DNA of 64,000 nt, from assembly GCA_008632985.1 (NCBI GenBank), contig QPGO01000132.1:62001-126000 (forward strand). Reading direction: 5' to 3'. The notes under the pieces were generated by a model. It had not been told where the DNA came from, searched no databases, and saw only the letters and a list, made by a program, of their open reading frames with translations. Shown here piece by piece: positions 35,441 to 60,900 of the stretch. Position numbers and translations under genes: made by a program. The stretch's first letter is position 1. Each line of letters starts with the position of its first letter. The stretch comes from Psammoneis japonica (taxonomy: Eukaryota).

Positions 35441-38079
35441 ACTTGCGAGAGCGAAATTTATTTATATGAAGGCTGTAGTTGCAAGTTACGGCACGTCTGG
35501 ACGCCGTTGAACAAAACACGAGACCCCTGCACTGCCTGCTGCTCAAGAGCCAGCAGCAGCTGGCCACTCTCTAGAGTGGAGAGCAGCTCCAGCAAGAGCA
35601 GAGAGTGGTTGCCAAAATGTCCAAAGGCTGCATTTTCATCTGGACGTGGTTCTGTTGAAAATTTCGGCACTGCAAAACACGCGCGGAAAAAGCCGAGCAC
35701 TGTGCTGTGTTGGCTCAAGAGAGGTTGGGCTGCCGCGTGCCTGCTCACATTCATCCAATCATCTCTTTTCATTCACACAGGTTCCAAATTTGGAACACCT
35801 CAATTTTGAGCAAGGAGCATCTTGTCTGCCAGCACATTGACTCTGAGAAGTCATCAGGAAACCTTGCAATGGATTCAGCTTCTTCTTGCCAGCTGAAAAT
35901 TGGTGCTTGGTTTTGCACGATGACAGCCTGCATGTGGGGCTCACATGGCTGTTGAAAAAACAAAAACAAAAGCAAAAAAAAAACAACATGCAGAAGCCAC
36001 ACCAGTTTCTGTGCACACTCATGAACAGACTCTAAGACATCAAAGAGCAGTGCACAGAATGTGAAAAAAAGAACACGCACATGAGTGTCTTGATGGAAAA
36101 TGGCGGCATGTTTTGCGCCCTTTCTTTTTTGGCCATGTGCCACTGTGCACCAGATTTTGTCTCTCCAAAAGCCAAGAAGAGCACACACACACCAGCCAGG
36201 CACCAGTTTGAAACTTTGTGTGCTCATGAAATGTTTGGCGAGTCAGTTGGCAGAGGAGTGCTGGCATCTCATGGTGATGCAGGCACCTTGACAAAAGAGA
36301 AGGTTGCCATGCTGTTGTGCAGATGACGTGCAATGTGATGTTGCAAATCATCAAAAGAAAAAGCAAGTGAGAGGATCAGTGTTCATTCTGAGGGCTTCTG
36401 TGCAGCACCAGGCATTCAAAATTTCTTGCATTTGTTGGTGGGTTGTTGGATGGCACAGAACAGCAAACACAGCAATCTGAAGTGTTGCAGCAACATCAAA
36501 GTTGATGCCCAAGCACAAGTGGGGCCTGTGAGCACACCAAAGAAGAGTCAGAGGAGGCAGCTGTTCTTCAACCACGCAACCTTCTTGGCTTTTTTGTTGA
36601 TGATTGTGAAAACAAGAAGCAATCTTGGGATCTCTGTTGGCAATCTGGCCAGGCCAACAGACCTCATTGAGGTTGTCAGGGAGGCATTGCAAAACTTGCA
36701 CAAGAAAGCTGTGAGGGCTCAACTGTCTGAACAACTTTGGCCCAATGGCGCCAGAGCAGTTGGGCAATTGCAGCCACACTCAAGCTGACTGAGAGGCATT
36801 CAAAACCTGTCAACAAAGCTTTCTTTGGCTGCTTCTGGCACACAACATTTCCACCAATGGAGAGCTGGAAGAGGAGTGTTGCAAGGACGTTGACACACTG
36901 ACACTGTTGCTGAAAAATCATGCAAAGGTGATGAGACAAGATGCAGAATGGGTTTGAGACATTTTGGTGAGAGGCAGCAAGAACAAAGCACTTCAAATTG
37001 ACTCTTGAAGGAAAACCACATGATGATGCAGTGCCAGAATGTGCTGTGCCATCATGCTGCAACTGTCTTTTCACCCAGCTGCAGAGCAAGGGATGCTGCT
37101 GGTGCAAGCATGCACAGATTGTTGCAGATCTGATGATGTCGACCAATGGAGCCCACCTTGGTCAAATCCCAAGAGATGCTGGTGCAAACATGTGCACAGA
37201 TCAGACTGATGATGTTGGCCAATGAAGCCCACCTTGGTCAAATCCCCAATTGGACAAAGAGAGTGCAAGGTGATTCCAGCTGCTCTGGCACCAAGGATGA
37301 TCTGATTGAGTTGCTGAAAATGACACATCTGATCCCTTGCATTTTGACTCAATGAGAGGTTGACATCCACTCCACTCACTTGCCAAGACACTGAAAAACA
37401 CACCAGATGCCAGGCAACAAAAGAACAAAATGCTGAGTTGCCACCTGTCAAGATTCAAAAATTGGCAAGATGCTGCACCATGCAAAGGACTTGGGGGCAG
37501 AGTGCTGGACAGATTTGTCTCCAATGCCAAGGAGTGCAAGGAAGGTGACACAATGCTTTGCAACATGCTGAAGAAGTCAGCACTCAAAGAGCAGCTGACA
37601 TTTCTGCATGTGGAGAACAACACCAGTGGCAGTGGATGCACTGCTGAATCAATTGACACAAGAGGAGGAAGAACAAAAAACAAAAGGGCAAGATGGCAAC
37701 AGCAACAGTCAGCCCAACAACACAAGAGACAGGCCCAGAAGAGCAGCCAGAGCAATGCTGTGGTGCATCACTCTCATGGCAAAATGGGGCACAAGTTCCC
37801 AGACTGCAAACATTGAAATGACATTGCTCGCAGTCATTGGCTCAAGAATGCCAGAAGGAAGCTGGGCATTGGGAGACAGAGTTGTGCACAGACATGAGTC
37901 AGGAATGATGACTGCTCACACATTGGTGGATGGCAACAACATGAGCATTGACGCCACTGGATCCAATCAGTCAACCCACTTGGGCTGGAGCAGGAGTGCT
38001 GCACGGCACGGGTCACAGCTGGTGAATGAAAAACTGGAAATGTGTGAGCCAGCAAGCCAACATTGGCATCAAGACAGCT

Positions 38080-41000
38080 GAGATCATCCTCAACAATTGA
38101 GCGTGAGCATGCAGAAAGAGGGGATTTCCAACACTTGCAGCCCACACAGTTGTGCAACAAAGGAACGTTGACAGTGACAAGCACTTCAAGCTCACCTTTG
38201 AAGAATTTGTCCTGTCTTGTGTTGAGAACAACTTGATGAGCACATTGGACATGCACGGCATTGACAGCATGCCATGTTTCGACATTGCCAATGGTGATCA
38301 CTGCACCACAAACTTGTGACACTCAATGGGCAAAAACTTCTAAGTCCCTGCAAGTGCACTGTCAGACCCCTCACTGACACACACATGAGTGGTCAAGAAG
38401 ATGGCCACAGCACAAGGCATCAAAGGTTTTGATTTTGCAGGCAAGTGTGGAAACAACCTGCATGATGCTGATTGGGCCACAGGAGTGGCAGATGACAAAA
38501 GCTGCAAAGATGAAAGTGACAACAAAGAAAAAAAGCAAGCCAATGAAGATGAAACCAAAAATGTTGTGAAAAGATCCTGGCCAGTAGAAGATCCAGCCCT
38601 GATCAACAGCATGAGAACCAAGAAGCTGAGGAAGAGGGCTGGGCAAGCCAAAAAAGACAAGTGTGGCAAGCGGTCAGAAGAAGACAATGAAACCCAAGAA
38701 GGCACAAGATGGGGTGGAAGAGAAAGAAACTGGGGAAGAGGCAAGAGCCACATCTGCCAGAACAAAAAAAAAGATCCAACTTTCAAGTGCTGTCACTCCT
38801 TTGCCAGCTGCATGCCAGCACAGGCTGACCCACACTTCCAGTGCATGCACTGCAACAGTGCAGCAGAAGCCGGCATGGACTGGCTGGGATGGGCATCACC
38901 AGAAGGTGACACCCCACCAAAATGACTGAGAAGGAACAATTTGCACCTGGAATTGCGTGTTGGTGACAGCCACAGAAGGCACCCCACAGATGCAAAGGAC
39001 AGTCACATGTGCTTCCAAAACCAATGCTCATTTGAGTTCCAAAGCCACTCATTCTTGCACCAAGGAGAGCTGCGCTCACAAGAACATCACGGCCACTCAA
39101 AGGAGCAGTGAACTGGGACAGCTGGCATGCAAAGGAAAGATTGCACAGGACTTGGAGGTGTGCAGCTGGGAGCCTTGAAGGCAAGATGGGCAGGTCATCA
39201 GAAAAAATGTTCATCACATGTGGAAACAATGCCAGACATCATGCAGAAATGCCAACACATGCATCAAACAGAAAACAATCAACTGACACCAAAGGATGAC
39301 TCTTGTTCTTGCAGGAAAAGGCCACAACAGAGGAGAGTTGCTTTCACCCCAAAGAGCAAAAAACTTCGTTGAACAACAGAAAGAAGAAGTGGCATTGAAG
39401 ACCAATTGGCAGGAACAGAAGATGACCAGAGAAGTGCAATGTTGATCGTCAATGGCAACATTTGTCACATGCAGAAACAATGCCAGATGTCACACAGAAA
39501 TGCCAATGCACGTGGCAAACAAATGACAATCACTTGACACCAAAGGATGGCTCTCATTCTTGCTCTAAAAAAGCCACAACAGGGGAGCTGCTTTCACCCC
39601 AAAGAGCAAAAGACTTGGTTGAACAACAGAGCAAAGAAGTGGCATTAAAGACCAATTGGCAGGGGCAGAAGATGACCAGAGATGTGTCACACAGATCCTC
39701 AGCGGTTTCTGCAGAGATGGCAGAATTTGCACTGGAGCCTGTGCAGCAAAGTTTCTAAGATGACAGAAAATTGTGAGAAACAACAACACCACCAGCATCA
39801 TGCAAACCACAACAAGGCTTTGACACCCATCATTTTCCACTGAAGAACATTGCTTGTGATGCTGCAATGATGTTGCGCCAGCGGCAAACCATCTGAGAAG
39901 GGTGACATCAGCACAAGAAGTCACACAGAAATCCATTTGGAAGAAGCTGTGAATGTGCAGCTGACATCAAAAAGCATCAGCCAGAACAATCAGGTCTGGC
40001 AGATCCTTTGATGCTGAAGCACACATTCAGAAACACAAAAAAGCATGCTGAGAAAAGAAAGCTCAGTTTGCAGCAGGAGTGGCAGACAGCGCAAAAGAGA
40101 AGCTCAAACAAAACAGACTCAAATGCTGCTGCCATTTGCAAATGAATGTGAGCCCCAATCCAAAGGATGACATCAAGTGCGGGGTTGCTGATGTGGAAAC
40201 AGCAATGGTGCTGCTGGCGCAAGCAGTGATGTGCAAGATTGACAACCAAATCTGACCAGGAAAGGGCACCTTGGCACTTTTTTTTTTCAGCAACATTTGC
40301 TGCATGAAAGCCCAAAAGCATTTGGCTGGAAGGGGCATGTGATGACTCAGAGAAGGAGAGCAAGCAACTCTGTGACTGGGTGTGCTTTGCACCAATGTCA
40401 ATTGAAGACACAACTCCAACTGAGTGGGTGAAAGCTGTGATTGCTTCAGTGTTTCTGACAAAAGGGCAAATGGTTTGCAGTGGAAAACCAGCCAGACAAC
40501 AGCCAGACAAGGATGAGTCAGCCAGCTCAATGGCATTGTTGGAAGGAATGCCAATGACAGCCATTGTCAATGCTGTGGAAGAGCATGATGTGATGAGCGC
40601 TGGCACGCAAATTGCATTCATGCAGACATCAGACATTGACCGCCCAGAACCCAAGGAGGGTGAAGACCAGATCATGACAAGAAAGACTGCAGGAGTGTTG
40701 CTCAACATGCTGGTGGGCATTGATCCCAACCCACATGGGCCATTTGTGGTCATGGCAAAGGTGAAAAGAGTTCTCTGCATCTAAGTCACTGGAGCTGCAC
40801 ATGACATGCTGGTTGCAGCTCTGCTGTGACACAAACAACTTGGCAAGGACTTGGAGAAAATTTTGCTCAAATTCAACCCACATGATCTGTGCATTGCCAA
40901 TCAATCAGTCAATGGCAAGCAGCACACTGTGCATTTCCATGTGAACAACCTGCTGCCAAGCCACATGAGCCCAAAAGCAAAGACAAGCTCTCAAGCTGGC

Positions 41001-41600
41001 TTGACAAGACATGTGTGGAAGCCACAGCAAAGCTGCCACAACACAAGGAAAGAAGCACAAGAACTGCCTTGGATGGTTGTCCTGGACTTTGGTCACAAGG
41101 ACAAAGTGAAAGTTGACATGACTGACTGCTGCACTTGCAAGATGGTTTGTCAGTTCCAGGAAAAAATCAAGAACACAGAGGATGCTGCCATGATGCCAAC
41201 TGGAGAGGATCCATTTGACCCTGGCAGCGCGAGACTGCTGACCAACAAGAAAGCAAAGACATTGCATGCATGGGTGGCCAAGGGACCATTTGCATCTAAG
41301 AGAGGCTCCTGCATGGATGTGCGCCCCACTGTCACAGCTTCATGCACACAAGTCATGGAGCCCAGCACCAACAAGGGCTGGGAAAAACCAGTCTGTGTTG
41401 CATCAAGTGTTTGAACTGGACATGAAATGAAGTTGCTGTGCTGAGCACAAAGAGGGCCTCTGAGCAAACACCGCTGAGTTGTGGCTGCAGGCAACAGAGC
41501 AGTGCAGGCAACGTCAAAGTGCATCAAAAGCTCAACACCCAGAGCAGCACAGAGGCTGAACTCACAGGAGCCAACAACACAATGACCATGACTTCATTGA
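38080..41600 (+). mobile_element. Degenerate Ty1/copia (CoDi-like) pol: integrase tail 38080-38560, RT/RNase H ~39960-41600, interrupted by another element
   Basis: QRNVDSDKHFKLTF, LHDADWATGV, KGQMVCSGKP, FNPHDLCIAN..VNGKQHTVHFHVNN, HAWVAKGPFASKR, QKLNTQSSTEAEL. Confidence 0.88.
39205..39686 (+). repeat. Tandem ~230-250-bp duplication
   Basis: Copies at ~39205-39436 and ~39457-39686 (…gaaacaatgccaga…gaccaattggcagg…gaagatgaccagaga). Confidence 0.9.
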
Positions 41601-43026
41601 TCAAGGGGCACAGTTCAATGGGGGGAACTCACAAAAGCATTGAACAGTGGAGCACAGAAGCTTCCCAGTGTGTGTCCACTGCCATGCCAATGTGTTCCTT
41701 TTGCAATGATTGGGCTGCATCATTTGAACTGAATTGCGTGCCAGTGAGAGTGCACCCTTGACCAAGGAACATTGGCAAATTCTTGGAAGCCAAGCCAAAA
41801 GACAATGCAAAGCATTTTGTTGTCACTTCAGACAGCACAACAACATCAGCAAATGCAGCCACAAATGACAAAGAAGCAATTGGATCCAGAAGCAACAAGA
41901 AGCTGCAGTTGGCCCCAGACAAACAACATGGCATTGAAGGGTTGAGTGAGCTGTTGATGATGGTGAGTTGCCCCACCTGCAGCATGGATTCATTTGAGGT
42001 TTGTGGTCTCCTCATCTCCACTCAAGCAAAAAATCAAACCACTCACAGTGACTTGCAACCACCTGGACAGCATGGCAAAGCAGTGCCTGCCTGTGCACAA
42101 CAGACCTGTTGATGGAGAAGGCAAAAAGCCACCATCCTCAATGTGCTGCATTGTTGGGAAGCAGCACTTGTGTGTCAAAAAACACTGCCATCAAAATCAC
42201 CATCATGGCCATCAGCAGTGACTTCTGCTCCTGCAAAAAGCACCACAGAGCAGTGCCAGAAAATGATGCCAAACCACCCAGTGGTTCTCTGTGCACAGAT
42301 GAGTGCCAAGAGCCCCACAGAATTGACAAGCCATGACACACATGGCTCAGGCCAAGGTGCATGCTGCTGGAAGCATGTGTGCAATTTGCACTGCCAAATT
42401 TCACAGAAAAATGAGGCTCACAATGAACAAGATGGCAGCAGTGTGAATGAGCTGCTGAAACAAAGCATGCGCACATTGTGCCAAATGGACTTTGCTGCAT
42501 TGACTGATGTGATGTCATGGACATCTCATCATCTTCTGCATTTTTGCCAACAATCTGTCATGTCATTTTTGGCTCACTGCAAAACTGCACTTGATGGTTT
42601 GGGGAGCTGATTGTGTGCATGCATGGTTTCATGTGGCAAACCACTGCATGGTTTGTGGCAGGAGTGGGGTTGTGAAGAAGCTCAACACCAGCTGCGCTGA
42701 AGACAAAGCGAGTCATCTTGTGGACTCTCATGGCATTTTCCTTTGTCCGCAGTGGCACCAATCAAGCAAGGTCCAAGCTGGAATGGACTTGCCACTAAAA
42801 AATGTTGGAGTTCTTTGAGTTGACTCCTCCCAAGACAGTCAACAGTTGGATCATGGACCTGCTTGTTGGTCCATGCTGCAGAATCCTGTTGAAGAGGATC
42901 CATTGTGCCTGTGTGGAGCATTCTGTGGAGAATGTCTGAAGGACAACAGACTGTTCAATGATGTGGTTGATTTCTCCAACAAGGAACAGCATGCCCATTG
43001 GCACATTTTTCAGTGTTGCAATGGCA

Positions 43027-43594
43027 GACGTGTTCCAGTCCCAGGTGACACGCAAAACGACAATCGATTTTGAATGTAAATTATGTATCTATAAGTGTAT
43101 GGAGCATTTTCATATAAAATACTTAAGCGAATTGGCTTTTATAGGCGTCTAGAGTATGCATAATTATGAAGAATTAAATAGTTTTTTGTGGGGTATCAAA
43201 TTCCTCATGGAATATGTATCATAAACTTCCTCAGTAGACTCAATACTGATTGTACGTCCTTACTCTTTATACGAAAATTTCTTTGTAAGTAGCAAATATA
43301 CGAAACATCATCGTAGAAAGATATATTTAGTTAACATCCAAATAACGGCAATAATTTCGCCGAAAATCATCCGTTGTGTTACGATTCGTTTATCGCAATG
43401 AAAAACATTGATGGCACAATAACAATGATTTTGCAACACTCACACGAGTCTTGTTAGTGTTGCAAAACAATAGAATTTGAATAAATCTATACTTTTGGTG
43501 GTGAAAAACCGTTCGTAAGTCAGAGACCGCGCAAAAATCGCGCAAACATGTCGTTTTTGTGCACGATTTGGGTCACGTGCGGCTGGAACACGTC
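43027..43594. mobile_element. 568-bp non-autonomous DNA transposon (MITE) with ~23-bp TIRs and a 4-bp TSD (GGCA)
   Basis: Left end GACGTGTTCCAGTCCCAGGTGAC; reverse complement of right end GACGTGTTCCAGCCGCACGTGAC. GGCA at 43023-43026 and 43595-43598. AT-rich non-coding interior. Confidence 0.88.
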
Positions 43595-45158
43595 GGCAGA
43601 TGTGGCTGATGTCAATCTAGTTGCTGTTTCAGAGGGACCCAGACGCAGACCTCAAGGCTGTTGGTCCAAATTTTAAAACATTGATCATGCAAGTGGCAGG
43701 AGTGCATTGGAGCATTTAGATCACAGGCATTGCAAGGTGCTTGGATGTCATGTTGAAGGAAAGAGATGCTTTGTTTCCTGACATGGTTTGCTGGGTGACT
43801 CTCTGTGAGAAGAGCTTTGCCATCATCAGCCACTCACCTCTGTTTTTCATCTCATTGGTTGGATTGAATCATTTGGTTCATTTGATTGTTTGTTTTTCAG
43901 CATCAGCACGTGCCTGTCATTTTGTGAGTTTGCAGTTTACGTTGATGACTTTCAGCAACCCACAGCCATTGCAGATTGCCAAAGCAAGTGTGTCAAGTGG
44001 CAGAGCAGGAAGCCCAAAAGGACTCCCTTTTGGTGACATTGACTTGCTGACTCAACAGGACTGCAGAGGAGGAGCTCTCCAAGCATGCCAGTGGAAAGCA
44101 TTGGAGCACAATCAAGAAGAGGTTTGGCTTCACACAATTGGTAGCAGCCAGCATGCCACCTGGACTTGATGGTGCAATGTTTCATGTGCTGGTGGTCAGG
44201 GACAGAAGCAAAGCCAGGAATTTGGAGCTGGAGCAGTGCACTCTTTGGCGCTGCATTTCCAACTGCAGCGGACAATGCAGAGAGTGCACACTGCACAGCA
44301 GACAAGCCAATGAGTGTGTTGTCTCCTGTGTGCACCACCAGCACCAACGACATTGTGTTTTTGTGGGAGGCAATGAAAGAAGGTGATGTGAGCAGCACAT
44401 CTCCATGTGCTGAGCATTGGCAAACAAGCCACATTGTGTGAACATCACAACGAATCCAGCTGCCCTGCTGAGGAAGAGTGCAAATGTGGTGGCGTGCGTG
44501 CTGTCAAGAAAGCCAAGAAGTGGCAGACAAGTGACCCAAGTCACATGTGCAGGCCTGCAACCATGATTTGGCTGGCAGCAAGAACACCACCAAGTTTGTT
44601 CTGGGGGGGGGGGGGCAGCAGCACAAAGCTTGTGGTGCTCTCATTCCATGAGGTTAAATGTGAAGCTTGCGATGTCCACAATGCAGGTGCCGGAGGCAGG
44701 CAGGCAGCGCAGGACGAGGAGATACACATCCGCCGGAAACTGATAGATATCGCAGTCATAAGTATATCTAATTGCCCCCAAATGTCCGAGGCTTAGCTAT
44801 GATATATTCATCATTGAATTACTATCATTCAAAATTTATAAGATTTCAAAACACCGGCACTTCTACCCTTCCGATACAAAGATTTAATATGTACTAAGAG
44901 GATTTAGGTATCATATCGACGTTACTATCAAGGATTATTTGTCCGTTGCGGTGAAAACCCCGCGTAAAATTTGGTACTGTATGTACGAAAGTTACGAGCG
45001 GTCACAGACTTGTGAAATCATCCAAGAAGTAATCATCAAAAAATAAGTTGTCGACGTTCGTGCCAAATATGCCCATGGCGGAAGGTGTGTTTGCAGAACG
45101 CTTTAGAACAAAACACCACATAGTGATACTTGATACATAGAGTGCTTGATATCATAGC

Positions 45159-46428
45159 ATGTCGGTTCGACACAAGGAGAAGTAAGTGTGTGTATAATCT
45201 GACAATGGCTGCTGTTGAATTGTTGAAGCATCGTAATGACTCGTACCTAACCGCTTCTCAACGCTTCAAACGCAAGACCCATTGAGCTGGAAGTCAATAA
45301 TGTGTTTGCCAACTCCGCCATGACCTCACCACCGGAAGCGTTGACGCCATCGCCGGAAGCGTTGACTCCATCACCGGAACCGTTGACCTCATCACCGGAA
45401 CCACGGTGTATCACCACACCCGGTGGGTTTTTGGTGAATTTAATGGCGATTATTCCAAGGAGATCAGTTATCGCTATCAGGTGGAAACCGTTCCACAAGA
45501 AGAGTTGGAACCAGAAATCGTTTCAAGAGTCGAGACTGCTGTTTTGGATTCGCTATTACCAGAGCTTTTCGAAGGTGAATGTATTTCAGATGCAAAGAGA
45601 TCAATACGAAGAAGAAGACTTGAGTTGATCGGGGCTAGTGTACAGCCACCTGATCGACAGATGGTGGGAGGTGAGGAACAAAGAACGTTATCTTGCAGAT
45701 TGAAGCTCGCGAGGTGTAACTTATGATTCACCTATATGTATATTTTTCTTTTTTGTAGTTGATTGTGAGGGCGAACTATCGGAAGGTAACAGTTGCTTCG
45801 TCATGGATGGGAAGTTAACTCTGTTTGGGGACGATCCGGGGGAACTCGTTGGGCTTGTTGAACCTTCTCGTGATGTTATCCGAGAACGCATGAATAGTGG
45901 GGCTTACAATGGTGCACATTGGCGAGTCATTAACATATCCTTTCGTAACGACCTAGACGCCACTAGCAATAGTGGGGCCTTGTCCACAAAAGGAGGGGAT
46001 AGTGGCGATTCGTCCAACAGCAGCGGAGTACCAACGTATGGTTGGGTATTCGTTGCCCTTGTTCCTGCAGTTCTTTGCATGGGATTGCTTTATTGGAGGC
46101 ATCGTCGGGATAAAGAAAACGACAAGAAGAAGAGATGGGTGGTTTTCCGGTTGCAGTGTCAAGTGAAGAGGTTGAATCTTACCGTGATTCACACGAAGAT
46201 CCAGTGGTTGGACTTACCGTGAATACCCCAGAAGTGACGGACAAGAGCGCGCCACGCATGGCTCCCTCCTCTTTTTCAGATGATGATCTTGGTAGCCCCA
46301 ACAGCAGCAGCCCGGATCGGGGAATCGGTATTGCCAGCCGACAGTCGCGTTCTCTCAATGAAGATTACCTTGCTGGGATGCAATCAATGAGCGAACCAGA
46401 TGAGTGGGAGCCACACGAGTTGACTTGA
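45159..46428 (+). CDS. Hypothetical single-pass membrane protein, spliced and frameshifted, with a 21-bp (TPSPEAL)x4 repeat at ~45321-45402
   Basis: Chain of ORFs joined by GT-AG introns or indels. TM segment YGWVFVALVPAVLCMGLLYW followed by basic residues. Confidence 0.6.
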
Positions 46429-46894
46429 TTAGTTTGATCTGAAGCGCAAGGTTGGGGTATTTGTCGCATGAAGAATTCATCAAGTCCATAAACGAAATTC
46501 ATGTCGATCTTGAGGTTAAAGTAGCAAGATGTAGATGAGCAGTTGAATTTATATCTCCTATTGTCGTACTTGGGCTCGTTCGGGTGAGTGCCAATACAGT
46601 AGTGTAGTGGGCGGAGACGACGTATTTTTTTTATGCGAGATTTGTTGGATACAACATCTCTACCGGTACTAAACTCTGTGCGGTTGCGGTACCGTACACT
46701 TGACCATCGAAGGATCTTTGGCAATTTTCTGTTGCCCGTTGTGTGGGAGGTGCGCTTAGCATCTATCAGAGGTGTTGAAAATGCAGCTTCTACTCTGTCG
46801 AGCAATCAAGCATGAGTACACTATGATAAGGGTAGGCTATGTTATACTAGTGACGCTGTCGAGATGATCTAAGGTAAGTTTACAGTGGCAGAAT

Positions 46895-48542: not shown

Positions 48543-48911
48543 TTCTCTGGTTTGTAGTTATACAGTATTGTCGTTCAACGGCGTCCTGTGCTGTTGTTGG
48601 TTATTTGTGTCGGTTCAACGGCGTCCTGTGTTGTTGGTTTGTGTGAAGAACAAAACGTGACAGTCATCGAGTGATCGAGTGAGGGTTCGTGTTCGTGCCG
48701 CCCTGGGTGTTCTCATTTTGTCCCCACGTAGAATCCTACATACGTGTTGGCTACATATCTTCGTTGGTACGCGAGCTTTTTGGAGAGTAAAATACTTATG
48801 TAGCTAGAAGCGAGCCACGTACAGACACCCATTTAGGATTGCGGTTAGGTTAGGTTCGTTCGTTCATCAGTAGATTGCACAAAACCCCATTTACTAGCTT
48901 TTAAAGTCTGC

Positions 48912-50362
48912 TTAGCTAAAGATGTATGAGATTGCAATGTATCCGAGAATCATGGCATAAAACCCAAACGAGGAATTCTTGTTACTTTCCGGTCCAAGCT
49001 GCTGCACAGCCTTTGCAACATTGGCATTCGAGCTTTGCAAGCGTTCCTGCAGTTCCTTGATTTTTCCAGTGGGCGTGGCACGTGTCAAGGGAACCGCCGA
49101 CGCATTGGTAGGCACTGCTCCGCCGCCACCCGCCGCGAGACGATTTCCGCCACCACCCGCTTGAACGTTTTGAATCCCAATTTGCACATCACGCAAAACA
49201 AGCAAAATGTCCTTGGACTGGTCCTGAAGCGCCAAGAGCAGTTGTCGGGTCTGTGCATCTAAATCCACATAGAGAAAGGCTCCTAACGACCGACAGCCAT
49301 TTAAAAATGCTGGAAAGAGAGAATGCATCAGCCACACCACCTCGTACTCTGTCGATTGCGGAAACGCCCACGTCGGCAGTGGGTTGCTTTGCGCGGATAT
49401 GAGAGCAATCTCCACAACAAGCATCACAACCAATCCTGTAAACACCCAGTTACGAGCTTCGCCACTCTTTTTGCCAAGCGTCAGCATAAAAGCCATCATG
49501 CCCCACGTCAGGTAAAACACACCACACTCAATCAAAAACTGCGTCTCATCGTAGCGCTTGTTGTTTTTGATACCGTCCTTTCCGAATTTATTGTACACCT
49601 CACGGAGTTCCATATCAAGCAAAACATCGTAGGCTTGTTTGACATTGTCGAATTCTTCCACCGCATTGGCACTGGGGTTTTTATCCGGGTGGAGTTGGAG
49701 ACTCATCTTTTTGTAGGCGCGCTTGATTTCCAAGGGGTTTGATGCGCGAGTGACACCGAGAGTAGCGTAATAGTTTGGTCCCTTGGCATGTAACTCGTAG
49801 CCTAAGCGAGAAGACAAGAGAGAAAGAGAGTAGAGTGTCAGACAGGGATAAATAAAATTGGTCCTACACAACTTCGGTACGACCAAAACCGAGGCGCCAT
49901 GCGCCATCAAAATTTGCCGCCATTACGTAGAAACATACGGGCTTTCTACGGGTAGCTTGGCCACGTGGAACCAACTTTCTGAGAAACAATGGAGACTGGG
50001 ATGGTAGCGCTTGTTCGACACCATCTCTGGTTGTTTGCAGGCTTTGAACTGACGTTCGAACCTCTAGCCCCCTTTTCTTTAGCGCTTTCGTCCGCAGATC
50101 ATGCGTTTCAGCACCGAGATTGACAGAACGACGATACGAACAGCAGCAAAGAACAAAATACCACGAGGGATGCTGTCGAACACTCACCAGTCTTGACGGC
50201 GGCAAGAGCTGCCAAGAAAGCAATCGCATACATGATGCTCTTTTTTCTCTCAAATCGACCGGGTCTCAAAATCCATGCCGTACACGGATGAACGATGAAA
50301 ACGTAAAAGAAAAATCCGGACAAACCGGAGAGGTCGTCCCCGCCATTTTCTGTTTCACTCAT
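48912..50362 (-). CDS. Membrane DnaJ-domain protein; exons 50362-50188 and 49801-48912
   Basis: NYYATLGV...IKRAYKKMSLQLHPDKN J-domain. The GT-AG intron joins in frame (TG-YEL). TM segments present. Confidence 0.9.
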
Positions 50363-50574
50363 TCTTTATTCTTTTGTTCCAAAAAATTATTCTTGTACAG
50401 GAATTATTTCCTACTACAACCAAAGGATAGCTTGCAAGACTTTTTGACGTTGTGTGTCTTTTTTGTGTCGAGCAGATGATGCAATGATGTGTTTCAACAA
50501 CGTCTTGAGCACGAAACACTCACGGAGTTGTTTTGTTGTTATTGACGTGTTCCACATGGAAGATGGAATTTCGT

Positions 50575-50586
50575 TTTCGCGCCAAA
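50575..50586 (+). promoter_or_regulatory. Candidate E2F site TTTCGCGCCAAA
   Basis: Matches the classic overlapping E2F element. Lies in the divergent DnaJ/MATH-BTB promoter and is conserved at 60918-60929. Confidence 0.55.
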
Positions 50587-50788
50587 AATCGCGCTCAAAG
50601 ACTGCGCCATTTGAACTCTCATGCGCGAATCGCTGCGCGCGCTTGTTTCAAACCGAAATCGGAAGCGACGATCGACGATCAACGATAACGACAACAACGA
50701 ACCAACGACCAAAAAGAACGACATCAAACAAACGACGTTCGGGATAATGTACCACTCATTCTTGCATATCAATCGATAAGGATACGAC

Positions 50789-52030
50789 ATGACTGATTTC
50801 ATTGAAGCTTCTGTAGTCGTTGGGGCCCAGCTTCCATCCACCAACACTCGATCCATCAAATTTCTTTTTCCAAACTTTGAAAATCTTCAGCAGAAACGCG
50901 GAGAGTTTGTCAGATGCCCATCGCTTCCTTGCCATGGTTACTTGTGGAAACTTGTGCTTTACCCACGTGGATCCGAAGGATCAAACGAAAGTGTGGAACA
51001 CATTTCTGTCTTTTTGAAAATTGAAGACACGCACCACGAAACATTTCGGTTTAATGTGATGTTCCGTGCAGGTGGAACAAGCGTCCTTTCTTCCAGACCA
51101 CAGACAATGGAAGTAATCGGAGGAAATTGTGGTGTACAGAATTTTGTTGCCCGTGAACATATCCTGAATCCAGCCAGTGGATGCCTCGTGAATGGGGCTC
51201 TCACGGTCGTGGTTGATTTGCAGGTTCCTCCGGGATTACGCAACGTTCATTGGCAACCCTCCAGCACGCTTCCGAGGGACATGACAAAGATTTACAAGTC
51301 ACAGGACTATTGCGATGTCACCTTTGCCGTCGGCAACAAAACGTTTCATGCTCATAAAGCCATTCTAGCGAAACGCGCTCCCGGGTTTGCAGAAGTATTC
51401 GAGTGCGAATCCAACAAAGAGAATAAGAAGGATGAGACGATTGTGATCGATGGTATTGAGCCTTCTCTCTTTTCGTACTTTCTCCATTACGTATACGCAG
51501 ATGAACTGTCGGATGAAATTCGCACAGTCAACGATGCCATGGCAATGCTCGACCTTGCGGACAAGTTTGACTGCACTGGTCTCAAACTTCAGGTAGAATC
51601 CAAAATGGCAGAAGCACCCAGCATCACAGAAGGCAACGTGTTGGACTTGCTTTCCTACGCGGACCGTAGGAATTGCGCCCTCCTCAAGGAAGCTGCCATT
51701 GGCTTTTTCGTGGCCCACAGTAATAACGTGATGCAGTCGAACGCATTCAAGGCTCTCGATTCGCCCGACTTGCTCCGCGAGATCATGACGGCCACGGTTC
51801 ACCCCCGAGCTTTGGACCAACAAGACACGGACAAGGATGTGGATAGCATGAGCGTTGCTGCAATGCGTGGCAAGCTCGAGAAAATGGGACTCGATGTGGA
51901 TGGTTCTCGGGAAACTCTAGTGGAGCGTCTCAAAGCGGTTGCGGCTGCTGAGGGCTCGAACGAGGGTTCGCGAGAACAATCCGAGAATCTTGGATCGGAC
52001 GAGCAATCCAACAATGGCGGTGCTGAATAG
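50789..52030 (+). CDS. MATH-BTB (SPOP/BPM-like) protein copy A with a SAP-like C-terminal motif
   Basis: HGYLWKLVLYPRG (MATH), DVTFAVG..FHAHKAILAKR (BTB), LEKMGLDVDGSRETLVERL. Confidence 0.92.
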   Translation: MTDFIEASVVVGAQLPSTNTRSIKFLFPNFENLQQKRGEFVRCPSLPCHGYLWKLVLYPRGSEGSNESVEHISVFLKIEDTHHETFRFNVMFRAGGTSVLSSRPQTMEVIGGNCGVQNFVAREHILNPASGCLVNGALTVVVDLQVPPGLRNVHWQPSSTLPRDMTKIYKSQDYCDVTFAVGNKTFHAHKAILAKRAPGFAEVFECESNKENKKDETIVIDGIEPSLFSYFLHYVYADELSDEIRTVNDAMAMLDLADKFDCTGLKLQVESKMAEAPSITEGNVLDLLSYADRRNCALLKEAAIGFFVAHSNNVMQSNAFKALDSPDLLREIMTATVHPRALDQQDTDKDVDSMSVAAMRGKLEKMGLDVDGSRETLVERLKAVAAAEGSNEGSREQSENLGSDEQSNNGGAE

Positions 52031-52509
52031 CAACATGTTCCAACAGGGGAGATTTGATACGTATGAAAACAATGGAGTTTGTTTGTTCTTTCATCTGCAC
52101 CGAGTTGGACTCGGGAGCATCTTGATGTTTGTTGTACACCGCAGCTTCTTTTGGACGCCGCTGGTTTGTACAATATCAATTTGTTGTACACCGTAGCTTC
52201 TTTTGGACGCGGCTGGACTATTGTAGGGTACTAGAGTACTGCATAGAAGTAAAATATTCATAGACAATCATCCTATTGTAACTTGAGCACAAAGAAAGAC
52301 TTCCTGATTTTGCGAATCTCAACCTGAAGCAACCCACGGAATACCCTGCTGCTCTAACGAGAGACGAGTACACAACCTTATAGGCAGATAATAAGAAGAT
52401 TATGTCTAATCGACATGCGATAAACGGTGTCCCTGAAGAGTGAGATAGATTGCTCAACTGCCACAACCGTCTATGTTCGACAAACCCAAAGTGATCCCCA
52501 GAACCCCGC

Positions 52510-52793
52510 TCCTTCGCATTCCACCTTTCTTAGGTCGCCTTGACGATGTGTGTGAGATATTTGGTTTTCGAAATGCTGATTGCACTGGTTGTGGATTTTT
52601 CCTTGATTTGGTTTCTCAACATACGGTAGCAGTTAAAAATTTTATCGACCACGTCCATGCCACTGCAGGAAACGAAGCAGGAAGCATCTGTAAGATCAAC
52701 TCACAAATAACACTTGAAATCCTATCCCCAACATACGGTATTATGTTACTCACCGAACGACTTCCCTAATCTGACTGAAACCTTGTTCATCTA
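52510..52793 (-). pseudogene. Duplicated 3' fragment of the cyclophilin gene (end of exon 1, intron, exon 2)
   Basis: Aligns with 62812-63072 (tggacgtggtcgataaaa…gagaaaccaaatcaagg) and carries indels. Confidence 0.8.
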
Positions 52794-52889
52794 CGAGCTC
52801 CGTTTCAGCTCAAGTCCCGAACATGGTTTAAGACCGTGATTTCCAACACGAGGTATGAGGAGTCGAGCAACTCTAGATGCTAATTTTAC

Positions 52890-55800
52890 ATCTCAGCTCT
52901 TATTTTCACAGCCTTTTGTGAATCTCTCTGCATCACCAGACCCCAGAACCACTTCTCATCACCCATCACAAGAAGGCAATTCCCTCTGCCAAGCCCCCGG
53001 TTGTTTTGGCAATGAACTGAGAAAATCACAACACTTCTTCTTCTGTTCAGTTCTCAGCAGTGGGATTGCGCTCAGCATGCAACTTGTGTCCCTTGCGAGA
53101 CGCAACCCACCTCCAAATGGCAGCAGAGCACCAGCCGTTTACACTTGCCTCCAAGCCCAGTCACAAATGCTTTTGATTTTTCCGCAATGCATCCACTGTT
53201 TGATGAAAGGTTGCTGCAAGAGAATGTTGCACCACTTTGCCTCCCAAAATGATGTCGAATCTGTCCATGCATCCAATGCCCGACACCTCTTCTTCACCAC
53301 TTCAAAGAATGTGTTGCACTCTGCTCTTGTCACATTCTCCAAGTTCTCAGCCACTTGCTGCTTGCAGTCTTTCAGTGCATGGATGCACCCATTTGTGAGA
53401 ACTCTCACTTGGCAAGTTCAGGGCTGTCAATGACAGTTGTCACAACCTCATCATGGAGACAATCATCACACTCATTGTTGACCCCCTTCTGCTTCATTGT
53501 CTCTGCCTTCAATTGGTCAAGACACTTGCATGGTGCAGGATCATGCTTTGTCACAAAATTGTGAAGCTCCTGCACATGCTGCTCTGAAAAAACCAACCCA
53601 TGTGAGCAATTGTTTTTTTTGTCATTGAGCTTCTTTCTGTCACCATCCACATGGCTTGCTTCATCCTGCTCTAACTGACTGCCAGTGCATTAACCAGAGT
53701 CTCAGCTGGGGCAAAGATGCTCATTTCCAACAGTCTTTTTGGTGGAAATGGGCAGTGCACAGATCTCTGCAGCCCACTTTTGATGCTTGGAAGCACAATG
53801 AAATGAACACTTCTCTGCTTGCATGAGAAAACATGCAAGCTCACCATGCAAGAACACATGTGTGTGGCTGCACTGATCACAGCACTGTGTGACAGCTGCT
53901 GGGGCTTGTGTCCCTTCCCATGCCAGATTGCAGAGACAACAATTTCTCACAGAAGAGTGCTCACACCACCAATGGCCAACTGCACCTGTTGACAGTTGGA
54001 GAGTTCCCAAACCCAAAACAAAGCACAAAATTTACATTTGAAGTGCTGTGCCACACCCTTCTGCCCAGAGACCCACACCCCCAGTGCCCTGATGAAATGG
54101 TTTGAGCACCTCAAGCAGCAAAATACCAAGTTTCTCAAATGCTCAGCTTGAGCACAAGCTCAAACATTGTCAGCAATTTTCTCAACCTCTGTGCACTGCC
54201 TGAGTGAGCAAGGCATTTGTGAGCCAAATGATGTGGGTGCTTTGTTCTTTGCCATGCAGCAACTTCCAATGATGCAACCACACCTTTGCTTCTGCATTTT
54301 GGCACAGTGGCACCTTCCCAGTGGTTTCAAAATCATGGCCATGAATGCCATCATTGTTGTGCAAGTTTCATGACTCCCACCATTGGAGCCAGACAAAGGC
54401 ACCAATTGGAGCCACTGACTGCCCAGCCCAGACACTGATCCTCCAAATCTGCCATCCAAAAGACAAAGCATGTGAGCTTCACTCTGCAAGTGGGGAAATC
54501 ATCCATTGAAAAGGTGAGACAAACTGTTTGGAACCTTTGACAACATTGAAGATGGCAAGTTCATTGGCATCTCTCCTGAAATTTAACTCTGTGCCAGTTG
54601 TTGACACACACAAAACATGCAAAGGTGAGCTTTTTGCAAGAAGTGCCAAGACAATGAGAACAAAAAGGACCTGTGCTGCCAGGCACCAAAAGCTCCAGGA
54701 CCAGAATGATTCAAACCAGAGGGTGCCTCTTGGCCCTCAGCAGAGATCAGCTGCAGAGCAGCCAATTGGGGGGTGCCTGAAGTTTGACAGAGATGATTCA
54801 CAAAACAATCCTGAAGCTTTGTGCATCATTGTTGAACAAGCACACATTTGGCACATTCAGCCAAGGTGACAGCAGAAAAACTGTGGCCAGTCAGAGCAAG
54901 GGGCAAGACAATCCTGGAACTTCAGATGCAAATGTCCCACATGCCAAAGCCTCATGGGAAAGAAAATCCCTTGAGGAACACCCCAAACCTGCCGACAAAT
55001 CTGAGAGTGCACTGTCTAAAAATGGTGCCAACAACACACCAAGAGGAAGTGGCAATTTTTTCTCAAGCATGTGACATTGGGTCAGCAAGCATCTGCAGAA
55101 AGAACAGTGACAGAGCATGATTTGCCAAAGCCATGAGAATGACATTCTTTTGCTTTTGCAATGACAACCTTGAACAATGTTTTAAGTGCTGACATCAAAG
55201 CAATGGCAACTCTGCCCAATCAATGTGCAAGAAGAAACTGCAAGAATCTGAAGAACAGAGTGTGAGAGGCATCATCAGAGGATGGAGGATCTGCAAGCCC
55301 ACATTGACTTGTGGCCAACTGAGTGTCTGGCCAAATGTTTTGACAACACATGGAAGACCTTGCTGTTCTCAGTGGAAAAGTTGGTGGCCAGCAAAGGATG
55401 GTGCAAATCAGAAAATGCCAGTCAACAAGGCAATGAGAGGCATGAGGTGGCTGAGCAACTCTAAAACAAAAACTCTGCAAAAGCTGCTTTCATGATTGTG
55501 AGTGGATGTCATCTGCAACTGTGACAAGCAACAACAAATGCAAAGGACAAATGACAGATTGGGTCTCACAATGCATGATGACCCAGTTGATGCAGGGTGG
55601 GAATCACAGAGAGATGTGATCCTCAACTTTGTCAGGAAGTCCAAAGCATCAGCAGAGGCCACTGGAGAAACCTTGGAGGAGGCAGCCCCCCTGCTGGCTG
55701 CAAACAGCCATGCCACTCAATGAAGAAGAAGCATCAATGTGGGACAGTCTGCCATCTTTTAAGTTGCACTGCAAGCCATCATTTGTGGAAAAAGGAAAAG

Positions 55801-58800
55801 ATCCAGCCAGGCCAAGCAGACAGACAATGTGGGCTCAGCTGAGTGGCAAGGCAGGAATGCGTGCAAGAGCCACAACTGCCTGCAGGTTGGTTGTGAACAA
55901 CAGCGCAAATCCAGGAAGAGTTTGCTCTCAACATGAGACTCATGTGTTGTCTCAAACAAACATCAGACATCAGAGACAATTTTTGCTGGACAAGCAGCTC
56001 TCAAGTGCAGAAATTGAACAAAATGGCAGGACCAAGGAGACCTTGCTCTTGTTCTTGGAGGAGACTCAAATGATGGTGTGGGAGCCACTCCCTTCTAAAC
56101 ATGGGCAAATGTGCTTTGCACAAAGGTGCAATGACCCAGAGGCACCTGTCTCTCCCATCACCAGTGCACAGCATTTTGTGGCAAGAACTGCTGGCTGGGT
56201 GTGCAAATTGATGCTGTGCTGGCTTCATCAGCTGTGGAAGTTGGCAAAGAAATTGCAGCTGGCTTTGGAGACTTTGACTGCACCTCAGATCATCAACTGC
56301 TTTGGACAGATCATGAAAAGGTGAGTTTGTCTGGATGACCTCTGCTTTCAGCATTGTCCGGGTTGACAACAGACCAGCTGGCAGGCAAGTTGCACAAACT
56401 GAAGATCTCAACAAAGCACCACAAATGGCATCAGAGCGTGCAACATGGTGATCAGACAGACTTTCTTGTGGTGAATTTTTTTAATCTGTCACAGTTAAAA
56501 ATTTTTTGTGGTTTCAAACCTCATTGGTTGTGTGCGTGGTGACAATTTGTCAACTGTGAAAGATGAGCTTCATTGCTGTGGAGCCCGCAACTGTCCTGTG
56601 AGGCAACACCATTCACTGTGAAACAGCCCACCATTTTCCCTGTGAGAGTGATTCCTGCAAAACCTGCAATTTAAAATCATTTGCATTGCAAACATTCCAT
56701 TTTGTTGTTTGCGCTTAATTCAAATGATGCAGACAGAGACAAAGGCTTGTCAATGAATTCAAAGAGGCGATGGCTGAATTCCAAGAGAAAGGCACAAAGC
56801 TGATGCACAAAATGGTGGAGAGCCGGAGCTCACTGCAGCAAAAGTGGAGTGCACCACCACCTTCGTAAGTGCAAGCTTGGACCTCTTTGAACTCTGCTTG
56901 CACTGCCACGCAGTTGAGAGCACAATCTCAATGCCAAGACACAGCAAGCAATCCAAACACAACGCCTTCAAATGAGTGACACTCTGTTCACAACGGCAAA
57001 TCATTGCAAAGAAGTGCAAAATTTTTTGTGAGAGTGCACGGGACAACAACAGCAACCAATTGAAACTGCAACACAGACTTGCTGGTGCATCTGCGGTGGC
57101 AGATTCGGTCACTTCTGCCGCCAGTTCCCGATCCCGCAAAGCTGATTCTGGACCAGTCAGGTGAAGCAACATTGCTCTGATCCACCTTGTTCATTGCAAA
57201 CAAATGAAAAATGCTTTGTGAGAGTGTGCAGGACAACAACAGCAACCAATTGAACAAAGCCGCAATGCAGACTTGCAGGTGCATCTGCCGCCGCCGATTT
57301 TGGAGCTTCTGCTGCCGGCTCCCAACCCATCGACATGGAATTGGCAGCTGCTGCGGTTGTTGCAGTTGACCCCCCCTGCTCTTGACCACAAACAGCAGAG
57401 AAACTTGGGAAGCCTTTTAAAATGAGCCCAACAACTCAGGCAACCTCCAATGGGTTGCCTCCCCACTCTCTGCCTCTGCAGTCTTTCTGGATCTGGATGC
57501 AGAAATTGGAGAAGACGGATGCAACGTAAGTGAACACATCAAAAACAAATGAGGCTCTTTTCGTGCATGCCTTTTTTGAAGAGTTTCACATGTGGCAAAG
57601 AACTTTTCATGCGGTGATTCTGAGAGCTGCAGGAACAAGCACCGCCTGCAGTCTTTCTGGATCTGGACACAGAAATTGGAGAAGACAGATGTGTTGTTGG
57701 CAAATGTGTCAAAAACCAATGAACCTCTTTTTGCACACACCTTGTTTGAACAGTGTAATTTGTGGCAACTTGTGACAATTCTGGACGCAAAACTCTGACA
57801 TGCGCGATTGTGCCAACACTGCAGAAAAGCAAGTTTGTGATGTGCGTGCACACAACACACAACAACACGCCAGAGCTCAGCATTCTGGACATGGCAGATT
57901 CGTGACACCACACTCGCGATCCCAAAATTCAAGCTGCACCCAAATAAAACCCCATCTTGACCAACCAGAAGCATGTGTTGAGCCACTGTCATTGGCCAAT
58001 GGGGCAAAGTCTTTCACCGCCATGGCCGGTTGTCGATTTGCAGATTTGCAACCACACACAGGATCCACGTGAATCACAACAGCGCATGCTCTTGTTTTTC
58101 AAACTTTGGGGAGAGGGTGTGCTGTTGTGAAGTGTGTAGAAAATTGCGCATGTAAAACATGCACTGAAAATGCCACAGAGCAACGGGCTGCGCAAATCTG
58201 GGAAACATGAAGAAAAATGAAGGTGGGTCACGTGCATGCGCGAAGTGCTGCAGACTGCACACGTGCAAAGACACACACACGTGAGTGAGGAGGACAAAGT
58301 TAAAACCAAGTTCAAATTGATTGTGATCAAAAGGAAACCAAACCATGCATCACAAAAAACAGATTTTGATCCCAATTAAATTGAACATTGCACGCATTTG
58401 ATTGAAGCTTGTAAAAGAAAAGTCAATGAGACATCAGATGAAATTCAAGAAACAGCTTCATTTTGTGGAGCACTTTTGCTGGCAATTTTTCAATTCTGCT
58501 TGTCAACAATTTGGACAATGCACATTAAAAAAATTTACAAAGGAAAGTGGATGCCACTGTGTTGCCACCTCTGATGGGGTCAAAAGAAGCTTGAGCATGA
58601 CAGCCTTCTACCAGAAAGAACAATGACTCTCATGAGCAGCACAGATCATTTCAGAGGATGCGAGGAACAACTTGAACACAAGACACTCTTCTTCTTCAGA
58701 AGCAATGATCTGTGACAAGAGGCAAAGTGCAAGTGTGGTGTTGCAAGCTCCACATGAATAAAGTTGAGTCAAGCAATGCAGCAAACAAGGCAAGAAAGGA

Positions 58801-60900
58801 AATCCAACCACACGGCCACTTGCAAAAAAACTTTGGCACAATCAGAGAGCATGTCTTGATGCCACTCATTGATGAGTGCACTGCACACAAAATGATGTGG
58901 GTGCCATGGCATGTCACTCAAACCAGATTGTGGCACAGCACCTGCAAGCAACAACAAGAGAGTGCTGCAAGCCAAAAAAGGAAGCCAAAGATCTGCAGCA
59001 AGTGGAGAGTTCAAAACACAATGTCCACAAAGGGTGAATGCCAAAGGAGCTGCACCCAAACACAAAGAAAAAATGATTGACCACAACTGCACAATCAGAA
59101 AAGAGCCCACCACAGAGTCAAGCAAGCTGCTGGGAAAATCACACTGGCTCTGCAATGGTCACAGGGGGGCAGGAGAATCAAGCACAGACAAGGTCTTGTG
59201 GGCCAAGAGTGGCATGGAGAATGAAGAATGCAAACATTTGCAAAATGGTTGAAAGCTCTCCTTTCATTTGGGCTCCACTCTTCCAAATGACTTTGGATGC
59301 TCCACAGGCACAGAAGCAGCAACTTTGGTGCAGCTTGCATCAAATCCTGCAGGGAGTTGAAGAGCATGCAGTGAAATTTGTCAAACAGCTCAAATGACGC
59401 TTGTGACAGACCACACAACACCTTTGGCAAGAACAATGTCATGGATCAAGTTGTTGCAAAAATTCTACTTCAATTGCAACATTGATTTTCTTGCTCCCAT
59501 GCCAACTCTTTGTCCTTCTTGTTGAGTCAACAACAACTTTCTCATTGCAGTGTTTGCCAATTTGGGGTGCAAGAGGGAGCAGCTTCTCACAAGACAAACA
59601 TCTGCCAATTTTGTGGCAAAAAGCAGCATGCTTCTGACATTGCAAGAGTGGTGGTGACAGGGCTGGAATCTTGCCATGCCACTGGAACAGAGAAAAATGG
59701 TGTGACATGCACTGTGGCTGGCCAAAAGCAGGACACCCATCAAGATCTTGTTGGAGAGACTTTGGCAAGAAGAAGCATTCACAGCATGATGTGCTCTCTG
59801 TCAATGGGCCAGAACCCACACCTCTCCCACCTGCGCAAACACAAACTGGACAAGCAGATTTTCAAACCAATTTCACCCTGGTCACATTCCTTGGCAGATG
59901 ATGGAGATCACAAAATGCTTGATTCTGGAGCAGAACTCTGCTGCACAAGACTGCTGCTGCAAAGATGTGGCCAGCACAAGCAGGTGTGTTGCCTTGCTGG
60001 GAGGACAGAGGTGCCACCAGATGACACACTTCCTGCAAAAGTTTTGACAGAGTGGAGTTGAGATTGCACCCACAGGCACCAGTTCATCTCAGCTGACCAA
60101 GAGGGCTTGGACAAGTGGTTGTTTGTGCAGCACAAAGCACAACCAATGGTGGAGACCGCACCTGCTCAAAGAGTTTGAGCAGGTGCCACGCTGTGACACA
60201 AGCATTGCTGATGGCTCCTTCAAAGATGCCATGGCAGCAGCAGCAATGATTTTGCCCCCCCCCCCCCTTCCAAAGGACACTCTTGCAGATGCCACGGAGT
60301 TGACAAAATGCCAGTCCAGAACTCAGATTTTGCTGCTTGCACTTTAGAGGTGAGCTTGTGCAGCACTTGCTTTGCAATGAATGCAATGGTCAAAATCTCT
60401 TTGACACAGTTCACTGGATTCAGAAAGTGATGCAAGCAGCTGTGCCTGCATGTGCCAACAAGGTCCAAGGTGTGTGTGTTGAGATCGAGAAGTCGCCAGC
60501 TCAGCGACCTCACACTTGTTGGTCCGCAGTCTCCTGGAGATGCTGAGCGTGGAGGAGATGGATTGAATGACCAAACAATGTAAAAGAAAAATCTGGACAA
60601 GTCCTCAGAGAGGTCGTCCTTGCCATTTTCTGTTTCACACCTGTGCTTGTGCTGCAAGCAAGTCGCTCTTTTGCAGAGAAAAGAAAGTGCACTTCATCTG
60701 TCCAACACCAGCAGCTGACACAGCTTGCAAGACTTTGCACCAATGTTTTGTGTCTTTTTTCGTCGAGCAGGAGCAGATGATGCAGTGATGTGTTCAACAA
60801 CGTCTTGAAGCACGAAACACTCGCCGCGGTGTTTTGTTTCATGTGGACGTGTCCCACATTGTGGAGGACGCAAGCAGCGTGCAAGCAGAGCACATTTTTC
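52890..60900. mobile_element. Hypermutated transposon block between the duplicated segments; includes an Ambal-like non-LTR relic at ~58600-60500 (+)
   Basis: TA/CG depletion. Relic motifs VTGG..KVLW, WPKAGHPS, IADGSFKDAMAAAA, FRGEL. Short internal duplications at ~57000/57190 and ~57475/57645. Confidence 0.75.

Follow-up and report, generated by a model that had tools for sequence, protein, structure and literature searches.

The 64,000-nucleotide window analyzed here, which comprises positions 62,001 to 126,000 of contig QPGO01000132.1 from Psammoneis japonica, is eukaryotic DNA rich in genes, among them a kinase with EF-hands, a subtilase, a multicopper oxidase, MATH-BTB proteins, and PrmA. 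Between these genes lie five stretches that have lost nearly all of their TpA dinucleotides, and this loss, its sequence context, and the loss of CpG that accompanies it are the subject of this report. The stretches are conspicuous in a 1-kb dinucleotide table, in which TpA and CpG stand at 0 to 0.15 of expectation, TpG and CpA at about 2, and G+C at 0.46 to 0.50. Each edge falls inside one 250-bp bin with normal sequence around it, indicating that these are discrete regions. Limits were drawn from TpA-free gaps, yielding five blocks, all located between genes, with a total length of 19,980 bp:

6081-7676, no strand assigned: block 1, intergenic and TpA depleted, with 5 TpA; partly CpG depleted, with 42 CpG.
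17387-19092, no strand assigned: block 2, with 3 TpA and 28 CpG; contains a tandem duplication (18189-18466 and 18476-18753) whose copies differ mainly by CA in one and TG in the other.
35500-43076, no strand assigned: block 3, 7.6 kb, with 10 TpA (9 of them in YTAR context, where Y is a pyrimidine and R a purine) and 60 CpG; TpG and CpA at about twice expectation.
43718-44654, no strand assigned: block 3b, the continuation of block 3 past a miniature inverted-repeat transposable element (MITE), with 2 TpA and 8 CpG.
52902-61065, no strand assigned: block 4, 8.2 kb, with 32 TpA.

Against the dinucleotide densities found outside the blocks in the same window, from which all expected counts were taken, the blocks hold 52 TpA where 834 were expected (0.06 of expectation, a deficit of 782; 5 boundary TpA were left out of the count) and 246 CpG where 1113 were expected (a deficit of 867), with G+C unchanged. 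TpG and CpA together number 4525, or 1.57 of expectation when pooled, with an excess of 644 TpG and 1000 CpA. Losses and gains balance: the combined TpA and CpG deficit of 1650 faces a TpG and CpA excess of 1643, and the same is true of subsets, with 1040 lost and 1043 gained in the CpG-poor parts and 457 lost and 443 gained in the parts that retain CpG. The remaining pooled dinucleotide classes lie at 0.84 to 1.37 of expectation. AA/TT stands at 1.04, whereas GC has risen 1.37-fold and AT and AC/GT have dropped, as conversion of TAC to TGC and of TAT to TGT predicts. The strands are affected almost symmetrically, the share of CpA in TpG plus CpA being 0.50 to 0.55 in each block, and no bias coupled to transcription or replication is visible. 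As a separate observation, the forward strand of blocks 3 and 4 (35500-43076 and 52902-61065) carries an excess of A over T, with a skew of +0.10 to +0.21 and locally of +0.34, while TpG and CpA are nearly balanced.

The loss of TpA from the blocks is real mutation in place, from TpA to TpG or CpA. A segmental duplication of 2.4 kb (50429-52793 and 60722-63072; 81% identity) carries two MATH-BTB-BACK-SAP genes, and only copy B has its upstream part in a depleted block, with the depletion ending about 45 bp before the copy B start codon. The two upstream regions are as follows:

50304-50790, no strand assigned: upstream region of MATH-BTB copy A, an unmutated paralogue outside any block that serves as a proxy for the ancestral state.
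60581-61088, no strand assigned: edge of block 4 on the promoter side of MATH-BTB copy B, with TpA lost and CpG kept.

Between copy A and copy B, ATAG has become ACAG, ATAA has become ACAA, TTAT has become CTGT, TAT has become TGT, GTAC has become GTGC, and ATAT has become ACAT, while GTAAAA is retained and CpG is mostly unchanged. Every informative change in this comparison runs in the direction that preferential attack on TAY predicts. Within the blocks, five tandem repeat pairs differ by 119 substitutions, 89 of which are transitions, and 22 of their 42 adjacent double differences place CA in one copy and TG in the other, as expected if a single ancestral TA or CG was resolved independently in each. 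Tandem copies also differ as TTAG to TTGG and TTAA to TTGA.

Read data bear on the copy number of block 4. The public DNA run X1 contains 88% of the words sampled from 52001-62000, and X1 contigs assembled from exact 31-letter words span 52101-56489 with 1 difference from the window and 58522-61164 with 2, in both cases at about 67x. Since this depth is that of the adjoining genes, these two flanking parts in block 4 are single-copy. In addition, self-BLAST of the window returned no similarity between one block and another, ruling out that the blocks are copies of one repeat. Elsewhere, an 851-bp X1 contig (depth, 64) has CA at 44178-44179, where the window has TG, a discrepancy that might reflect two alleles in which a single ancestral TA or CG was resolved in different ways. 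Two inserted elements accompany the blocks:

43029-43595, no strand assigned: MITE-like insertion between blocks 3 and 3b, with 12-nt inverted ends and a depth of about 11,800 against about 67 for single-copy sequence, corresponding to about 175 copies.
56471-58538, no strand assigned: 2.07-kb terminal inverted repeat (TIR) element inside block 4, with 18-nt inverted ends and a depth of up to about 5,300, corresponding to about 80 copies.

The MITE-like insertion has normal TpA and CpG content and is unmutated, though it lies within a fully depleted block; an exact 33-mer from it had 0 matches in metagenome contigs. The TIR element is only partly depleted (16 TpA and 49 CpG), and we regard it as younger. 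It carries internal tandem repeats at 57001-57129/57191-57323 and 57476-57598/57646-57768.

The few TpA that survive in the blocks are not a random sample of TpA contexts. By flanking class, they are distributed as follows:

YTAR: 32 of 52 in blocks, 284 of 1838 outside.
RTAR: 11 of 52 in blocks, 493 of 1838 outside.
YTAY: 8 of 52 in blocks, 497 of 1838 outside.
RTAY: 1 of 52 in blocks, 564 of 1838 outside (p=2.6e-7).

Survivors are thus mostly YTAR (Fisher odds ratio, 8.75; p=1.8e-13), as a sequence-only reading of positions 35520-60900 had proposed. The eight sites quoted in that reading are all present, with TA at 35572, 36033, 39646, 40782, 41297, and 55183 and at the two exceptions, 38585 and 54124. 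Its impression that exceptions are few suits block 3, as listed above, but is overstated for the interval as a whole, where 18 of the 44 block TpA depart from the pattern (11 RTAR, 6 YTAY, and 1 RTAY, beside 26 YTAR made up of 13 TTAA, 11 CTAA, 1 CTAG, and 1 TTAG). Many exceptions sit in the TIR element, where a substantial fraction of the non-YTAR survivors is located, and in the repeat zone around it (56341-59008), where 10 of the 18 block TpA are exceptions. The enrichment stands after normalization to background in a count of NTAN tetramers inside and outside the blocks, and it is robust to the choice of null: outside DNA not in open reading frames gives YTAR at 170 of 853 TpA (odds ratio, 6.4; p=3.5e-10), the flanks of in-block TG/CA are Y..R in 23% (binomial p=4e-9), and sets of 52 TpA drawn at random from outside the blocks, 100,000 times over, average 8.0 YTAR with a maximum of 20, against the 32 observed. 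Trimming the block cores by 200 bp leaves YTAR at 29 of 49.

How the two strands contribute is seen when survival is expressed relative to outside density. YTAR, in which neither strand presents TAY, survives at 32 of an expected 129; YTAY and RTAR, in which one strand does, at 19 of 449; and RTAY, in which both do, at 1 of 256. Survival is therefore near multiplicative, which fits independent attack on the two strands under a product rule. The idea that TAY is the target accordingly holds in its two-strand logic and in the preference for TAY, whereas as a definition of the target it fails; about 75% of YTAR sites have been lost too, so the preference is graded. The surrounding bases add to the gradient. 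TTAA survives at 15 of 34 expected, CTAG at 2 of 34, and TTAG at 3 of 32, and YYTARR makes up 19 of 52 survivors against 67 of 1837 TpA outside. Across the 104 strands flanking the survivors, A occupies +1 in 55% and +2 in 60%, against 21-27% expected, and A+T reaches 72% at +3. Counted per strand, TAAA, TAGA, and TAAG are the best survivors, and TATN occurs in 3 of the 104, each time as TATT.

These contexts were quantified with a two-strand Poisson model in which each 3' base has one exposure and each TpA may be hit on either strand. The model fits (deviance, 17.8 with 12 degrees of freedom); distinguishing pyrimidine from purine improves on the null by a chi2 of 67.8, and distinguishing all four bases improves on that by a further 22.7. 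The resulting exposures are 0.37 for TAA, 1.16 for TAG, 2.02 for TAC, and 3.78 for TAT. Adding a factor for A at +2 improves the fit again (likelihood ratio chi2, 25.5; p=4.5e-7) and multiplies the rate by 0.39 (bootstrap range, 0.25 to 0.52), an approximately 2.6-fold reduction. With this term, the exposures become 0.56 for A, the resistant base, 1.97 for G, 2.54 for C, and 4.26 for T, bringing TAG near TAC, and both pyrimidines exceed both purines at +1 with a bootstrap support of 0.93. The context rule is hence TAT > TAC >= TAG >> TAA with A at +2 protective, the +2 effect being absent from the sequence-only reading. The product side agrees, with TGY and RCA accounting for 69% of the TG/CA excess, or 74% where CpG is retained (inside versus outside, Fisher p=3.6e-14).

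CpG is depleted along with TpA in all five blocks, for example over 36000-43076 and 52902-56340, but its loss has a different footprint. At the edges of the blocks, TpA loss runs 250-350 bp past CpG loss, and the bin at 60750-60999 has 0 TpA and 24 CpG, showing that the two losses are separable. Surviving CpG lean toward RCGY, which accounts for 87 of the 246 in the blocks and for 579 of the 2453 elsewhere in the window, with GCGC surviving best. This side observation suggests that YCG was lost first; many of the surviving CpG are clustered in a few CpG-rich patches. Decay of methylated cytosine may be the source of the CpG loss.

Taken together, we favor, with a probability of roughly 0.65, context-dependent local mutation of TpA to TpG or CpA at the DNA level in a diatom-like nuclear genome, together with a separable and narrower CpG decay. 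Roughly equal effects on both strands, spread into a unique promoter, and single-copy targets argue for a process that acts on DNA and is directed to regions, and on the same three grounds RNA editing with copy-back and a repeat-triggered process are both disfavored. Under the proposed mechanism, a local process would convert A to G on one strand or the other of TpA within single-copy, intergenic stretches lacking a recognizable coding remnant, while CpG would decay separately to TpG or CpA over the narrower footprint. With either strand of TpA open to attack, a site would survive only where both strands offer poor context. The per-strand rate would be set by the bases 3' of the A, in the order T > C >= G >> A at +1 and with an approximately 2.6-fold reduction by A at +2; such rates would leave survivors that are mostly TTAA and CTAA and, more generally, YYTARR. 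Of this account, the window itself shows the depletion, its origin by mutation, the gradient of contexts, the near symmetry of the strands, and the unequal footprints of TpA and CpG loss, whereas the agent and the source of the CpG loss are inferred. The simplest agent would be an adenine deaminase that requires a 5' T and disfavors A on the 3' side, perhaps one acting sequence-selectively on the DNA of silenced or foreign chromatin, as has been proposed for the chlorarachniophyte Bigelowiella natans.

Several alternatives concern why particular TpA survive. If only an A preceding a pyrimidine were hit and YTAR were immune, which is the strict form of the TAY target, the near disappearance of RTAY and the fact that the informative paralogue changes all lie on the TAY strand would follow directly. 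Such immunity is nonetheless rather unlikely given that YTAR itself has fallen to 32 from about 129, that tandem copies include TTAG/TTGG and TTAA/TTGA pairs, that CTAG and TTAG survive far less well than TTAA, and that TAG (1.97) comes near TAC (2.54) once +2 is modeled. The selectivity might instead lie in the DNA, with TpA flanked by A-tracts or in YYTARR shielded from a mutator that has no 3' preference of its own, for example by the structure of the DNA, by a bound protein, or by a protective modification. The reach of the enrichment to +2 and +3 and the abundance of YYTARR among the survivors would suit such shielding, but we consider it unlikely; the +1 gradient also splits T from C and G from A, for which a binding-pocket preference is simpler, and nothing independent points to a bound factor, although sequence alone cannot separate shielding from enzyme preference. 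It is very unlikely that the residual TpA are new or are a legacy of an unusual ancestral composition. With 4525 TpG and CpA in the blocks, ordinary G-to-A and C-to-T changes must create some TpA, but in-block TG/CA have Y..R flanks in 23% of cases and A in 22-25% at +1 and +2, from which 62% YTAR is not expected, and the contexts present at steady state would in any case follow the rate of destruction. The near-normal AA/TT also counts against this reading.

Other alternatives replace the agent altogether. Polymerase eta makes A-to-G errors in WA motifs (W, A or T) in somatic hypermutation, and error-prone repair synthesis of this kind after cytosine deamination would explain why C-to-T changes at CpG and A-to-G changes at TpA co-occur in the same blocks. 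WA includes AA, however, and AA/TT is not depleted; moreover, TpA is lost without nearby CpG loss at the block edges, which indicates that the A:T changes are independent of local CpG deamination. As the mass balance also implies almost only transitions and leaves little room for transversions, we rejected this candidate as highly improbable. ADAR enzymes prefer G as the 3' neighbor, unlike the order T > C >= G >> A found here, and hyperediting of double-stranded RNA with copy-back into DNA would sit poorly with single-copy blocks, with equal effects on both strands, and with extension to a unique promoter flank whose paralogue is unmutated. The preference of ADAR for a 5' U (Discussion of 10.64898/2026.01.13.699255) fits the TpA target, but on the 3' order, strand symmetry, and promoter spread we rejected ADAR-type editing too. 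An assembly or base-calling artifact would not yield CA and TG differences between tandem copies, and the X1 contigs agree with the window at about 67x; artifact and RNA editing are together the least probable of the explanations considered.

A number of points weigh against the favored explanation. Chief among them, the blocks' ancestral sequence had to be assumed, and all rates presuppose that it shared its TpA contexts with the remainder of the window. Under the assumed ancestral composition, some flows are unbalanced (AA/TT, +132; GA/TC, -348). The order of TAC and TAG is not fixed by the 52 survivors (bootstrap P=0.93). The untouched MITE means either that it was inserted recently or that the process has ceased here, or that the process spares some DNA at this locus. 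X1 was the sole DNA run found to contain the stretch and may be the assembly's own source; the same look-up listed no RNA run containing it, which carries no information on expression. Finally, the absence of a domain remnant gives no sign that the blocks are foreign DNA; a Pfam scan of the 131 stop-to-stop open reading frames of at least 80 amino acids located in the blocks or up to 300 bp from them, with remnants spanning stop codons not looked at, gave nothing informative about origin, its matches being one sub-threshold Roquin and the MATH domain of a flanking gene.

The diatom-like character of the host is indicated by the genes of the window. PrmA homologues share 46-69% identity, and those that are named all come from diatoms (Seminavis, Nitzschia, Cylindrotheca, and Bacillariaceae; 51-55%), the best unnamed match reaching 69%. 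Named MATH-BTB homologues are likewise from diatoms, and Bacillariophyta is the group in which the kinase's top protein-atlas cluster occurs most often. A search of metagenome contigs for relatives of PrmA yielded 37 pattern matches, 0 of them confirmed. Two kinase genes, encoding a 415-amino-acid kinase and the 1098-amino-acid kinase with EF-hands, contain inverted paralogous segments (8172-9591 and 21068-22488) with 72% identity over 1.4 kb. Contigs of a second run, X2 (filed as "DNA?"), leave out 45669-45756 and 49801-50186; given GT..AG ends at the first of these gaps, X2 resembles RNA in its behavior, and the omitted stretches are probably introns. X2 gave no contigs over 53006-62343 and is uninformative on expression there.

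The closest parallel is found in B. natans, in which Mettrop et al. (10.64898/2026.01.13.699255) describe localized TpA-to-TpG/CpA hypermutation of integrated nucleocytoplasmic large DNA virus (NCLDV) and virophage DNA. In the main text of that preprint, two integrated viral regions yield 231 de novo mutations, of which 230 are A to G or T to C, all of these on TpA; the mutation rate is raised about 1000-fold in some lines; 124 TpA-depleted, CpA- and TpG-enriched clusters of at least 3 kb are found in the genome; and an ADAT2 homologue is proposed, without certainty, as the candidate enzyme. The dinucleotide, the products on either strand, and the confinement to discrete regions of the nuclear genome are the same here. 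Compared with that account, the host here is diatom-like and not a chlorarachniophyte, erasure is almost complete (TpA at 0.06 of expectation, against a Rho of 0.45 in the B. natans NCLDV region), and CpG is co-depleted. As to targets, no viral or transposable element domains are recognizable in the blocks, one TIR element is partly mutated, and the MITE is untouched. The words "CpG," "context," "trinucleotide," and "flanking" have 0 occurrences in the main text of the preprint. What we describe would be the same kind of editing, now in a diatom-like genome, with a quantitative flanking rule and a co-located, separable CpG decay as the new elements.

Better-known processes share some of these features. 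Fungal repeat-induced point mutation (RIP) likewise is limited to regions, confined to transitions, and specific for a dinucleotide, and it too degrades non-genic DNA and leaks into adjoining unique sequence. RIP, however, converts CpA to TpA in duplicated targets, raising TpA and lowering CpA and TpG, whereas here TpA is erased and CpA and TpG are about doubled in single-copy blocks; a TpA level of 0.06, CA/TG at 1.57 of expectation, and single-copy depth rule it out. The tRNA adenosine deaminases TadA and ADAT2-ADAT3, which carry an HxE-PCxxC motif, and their DNA-editing derivatives edit only an A with a pyrimidine (U/T) on its 5' side, and UAC is the natural TadA context; TAT is not known among natural A34 tRNA substrates, while TAA and TAG are natural ADAT substrates. 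The process described here resembles them in its 5' T requirement and in TAC being a good target. It differs in that TAT is best, TAG intermediate, and TAA poorest, and an order of TAT above TAC is not predicted by the tRNA substrates alone. The CpG changes, for their part, look like 5-methylcytosine decay, with CG passing to TG or CA, G+C unchanged, and confinement to silent non-genic DNA. Such decay would account for the CpG half only, its footprint being narrower than that of the TpA loss.

In sum, natural, targeted A-to-G editing of nuclear DNA has, in the literature searched, been reported only in one 2026 preprint, on a chlorarachniophyte, and our search found no description of TpA-to-TpG hypermutation besides that one (10.64898/2026.01.13.699255). 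The context signature obtained here can be used for testing against the 231 de novo mutations of B. natans, for screening candidate deaminases, and for finding such regions in other algae, and base-editing work would also have an interest in a natural DNA adenine deaminase whose context is defined. More broadly, and only tentatively, TpA-directed DNA editing may be an old genome-defense system across the stramenopile-alveolate-Rhizaria (SAR) supergroup, shared by diatoms and chlorarachniophytes and carried out by an enzyme with the signature of a 5' T, T > C >= G >> A at +1, and A disfavored at +2. In diatoms, this activity might be partnered by a YCG-preferring cytosine deamination, or might belong to the same dual A/C deaminase, and the two would jointly erase both self-complementary pyrimidine-purine steps from silenced DNA.

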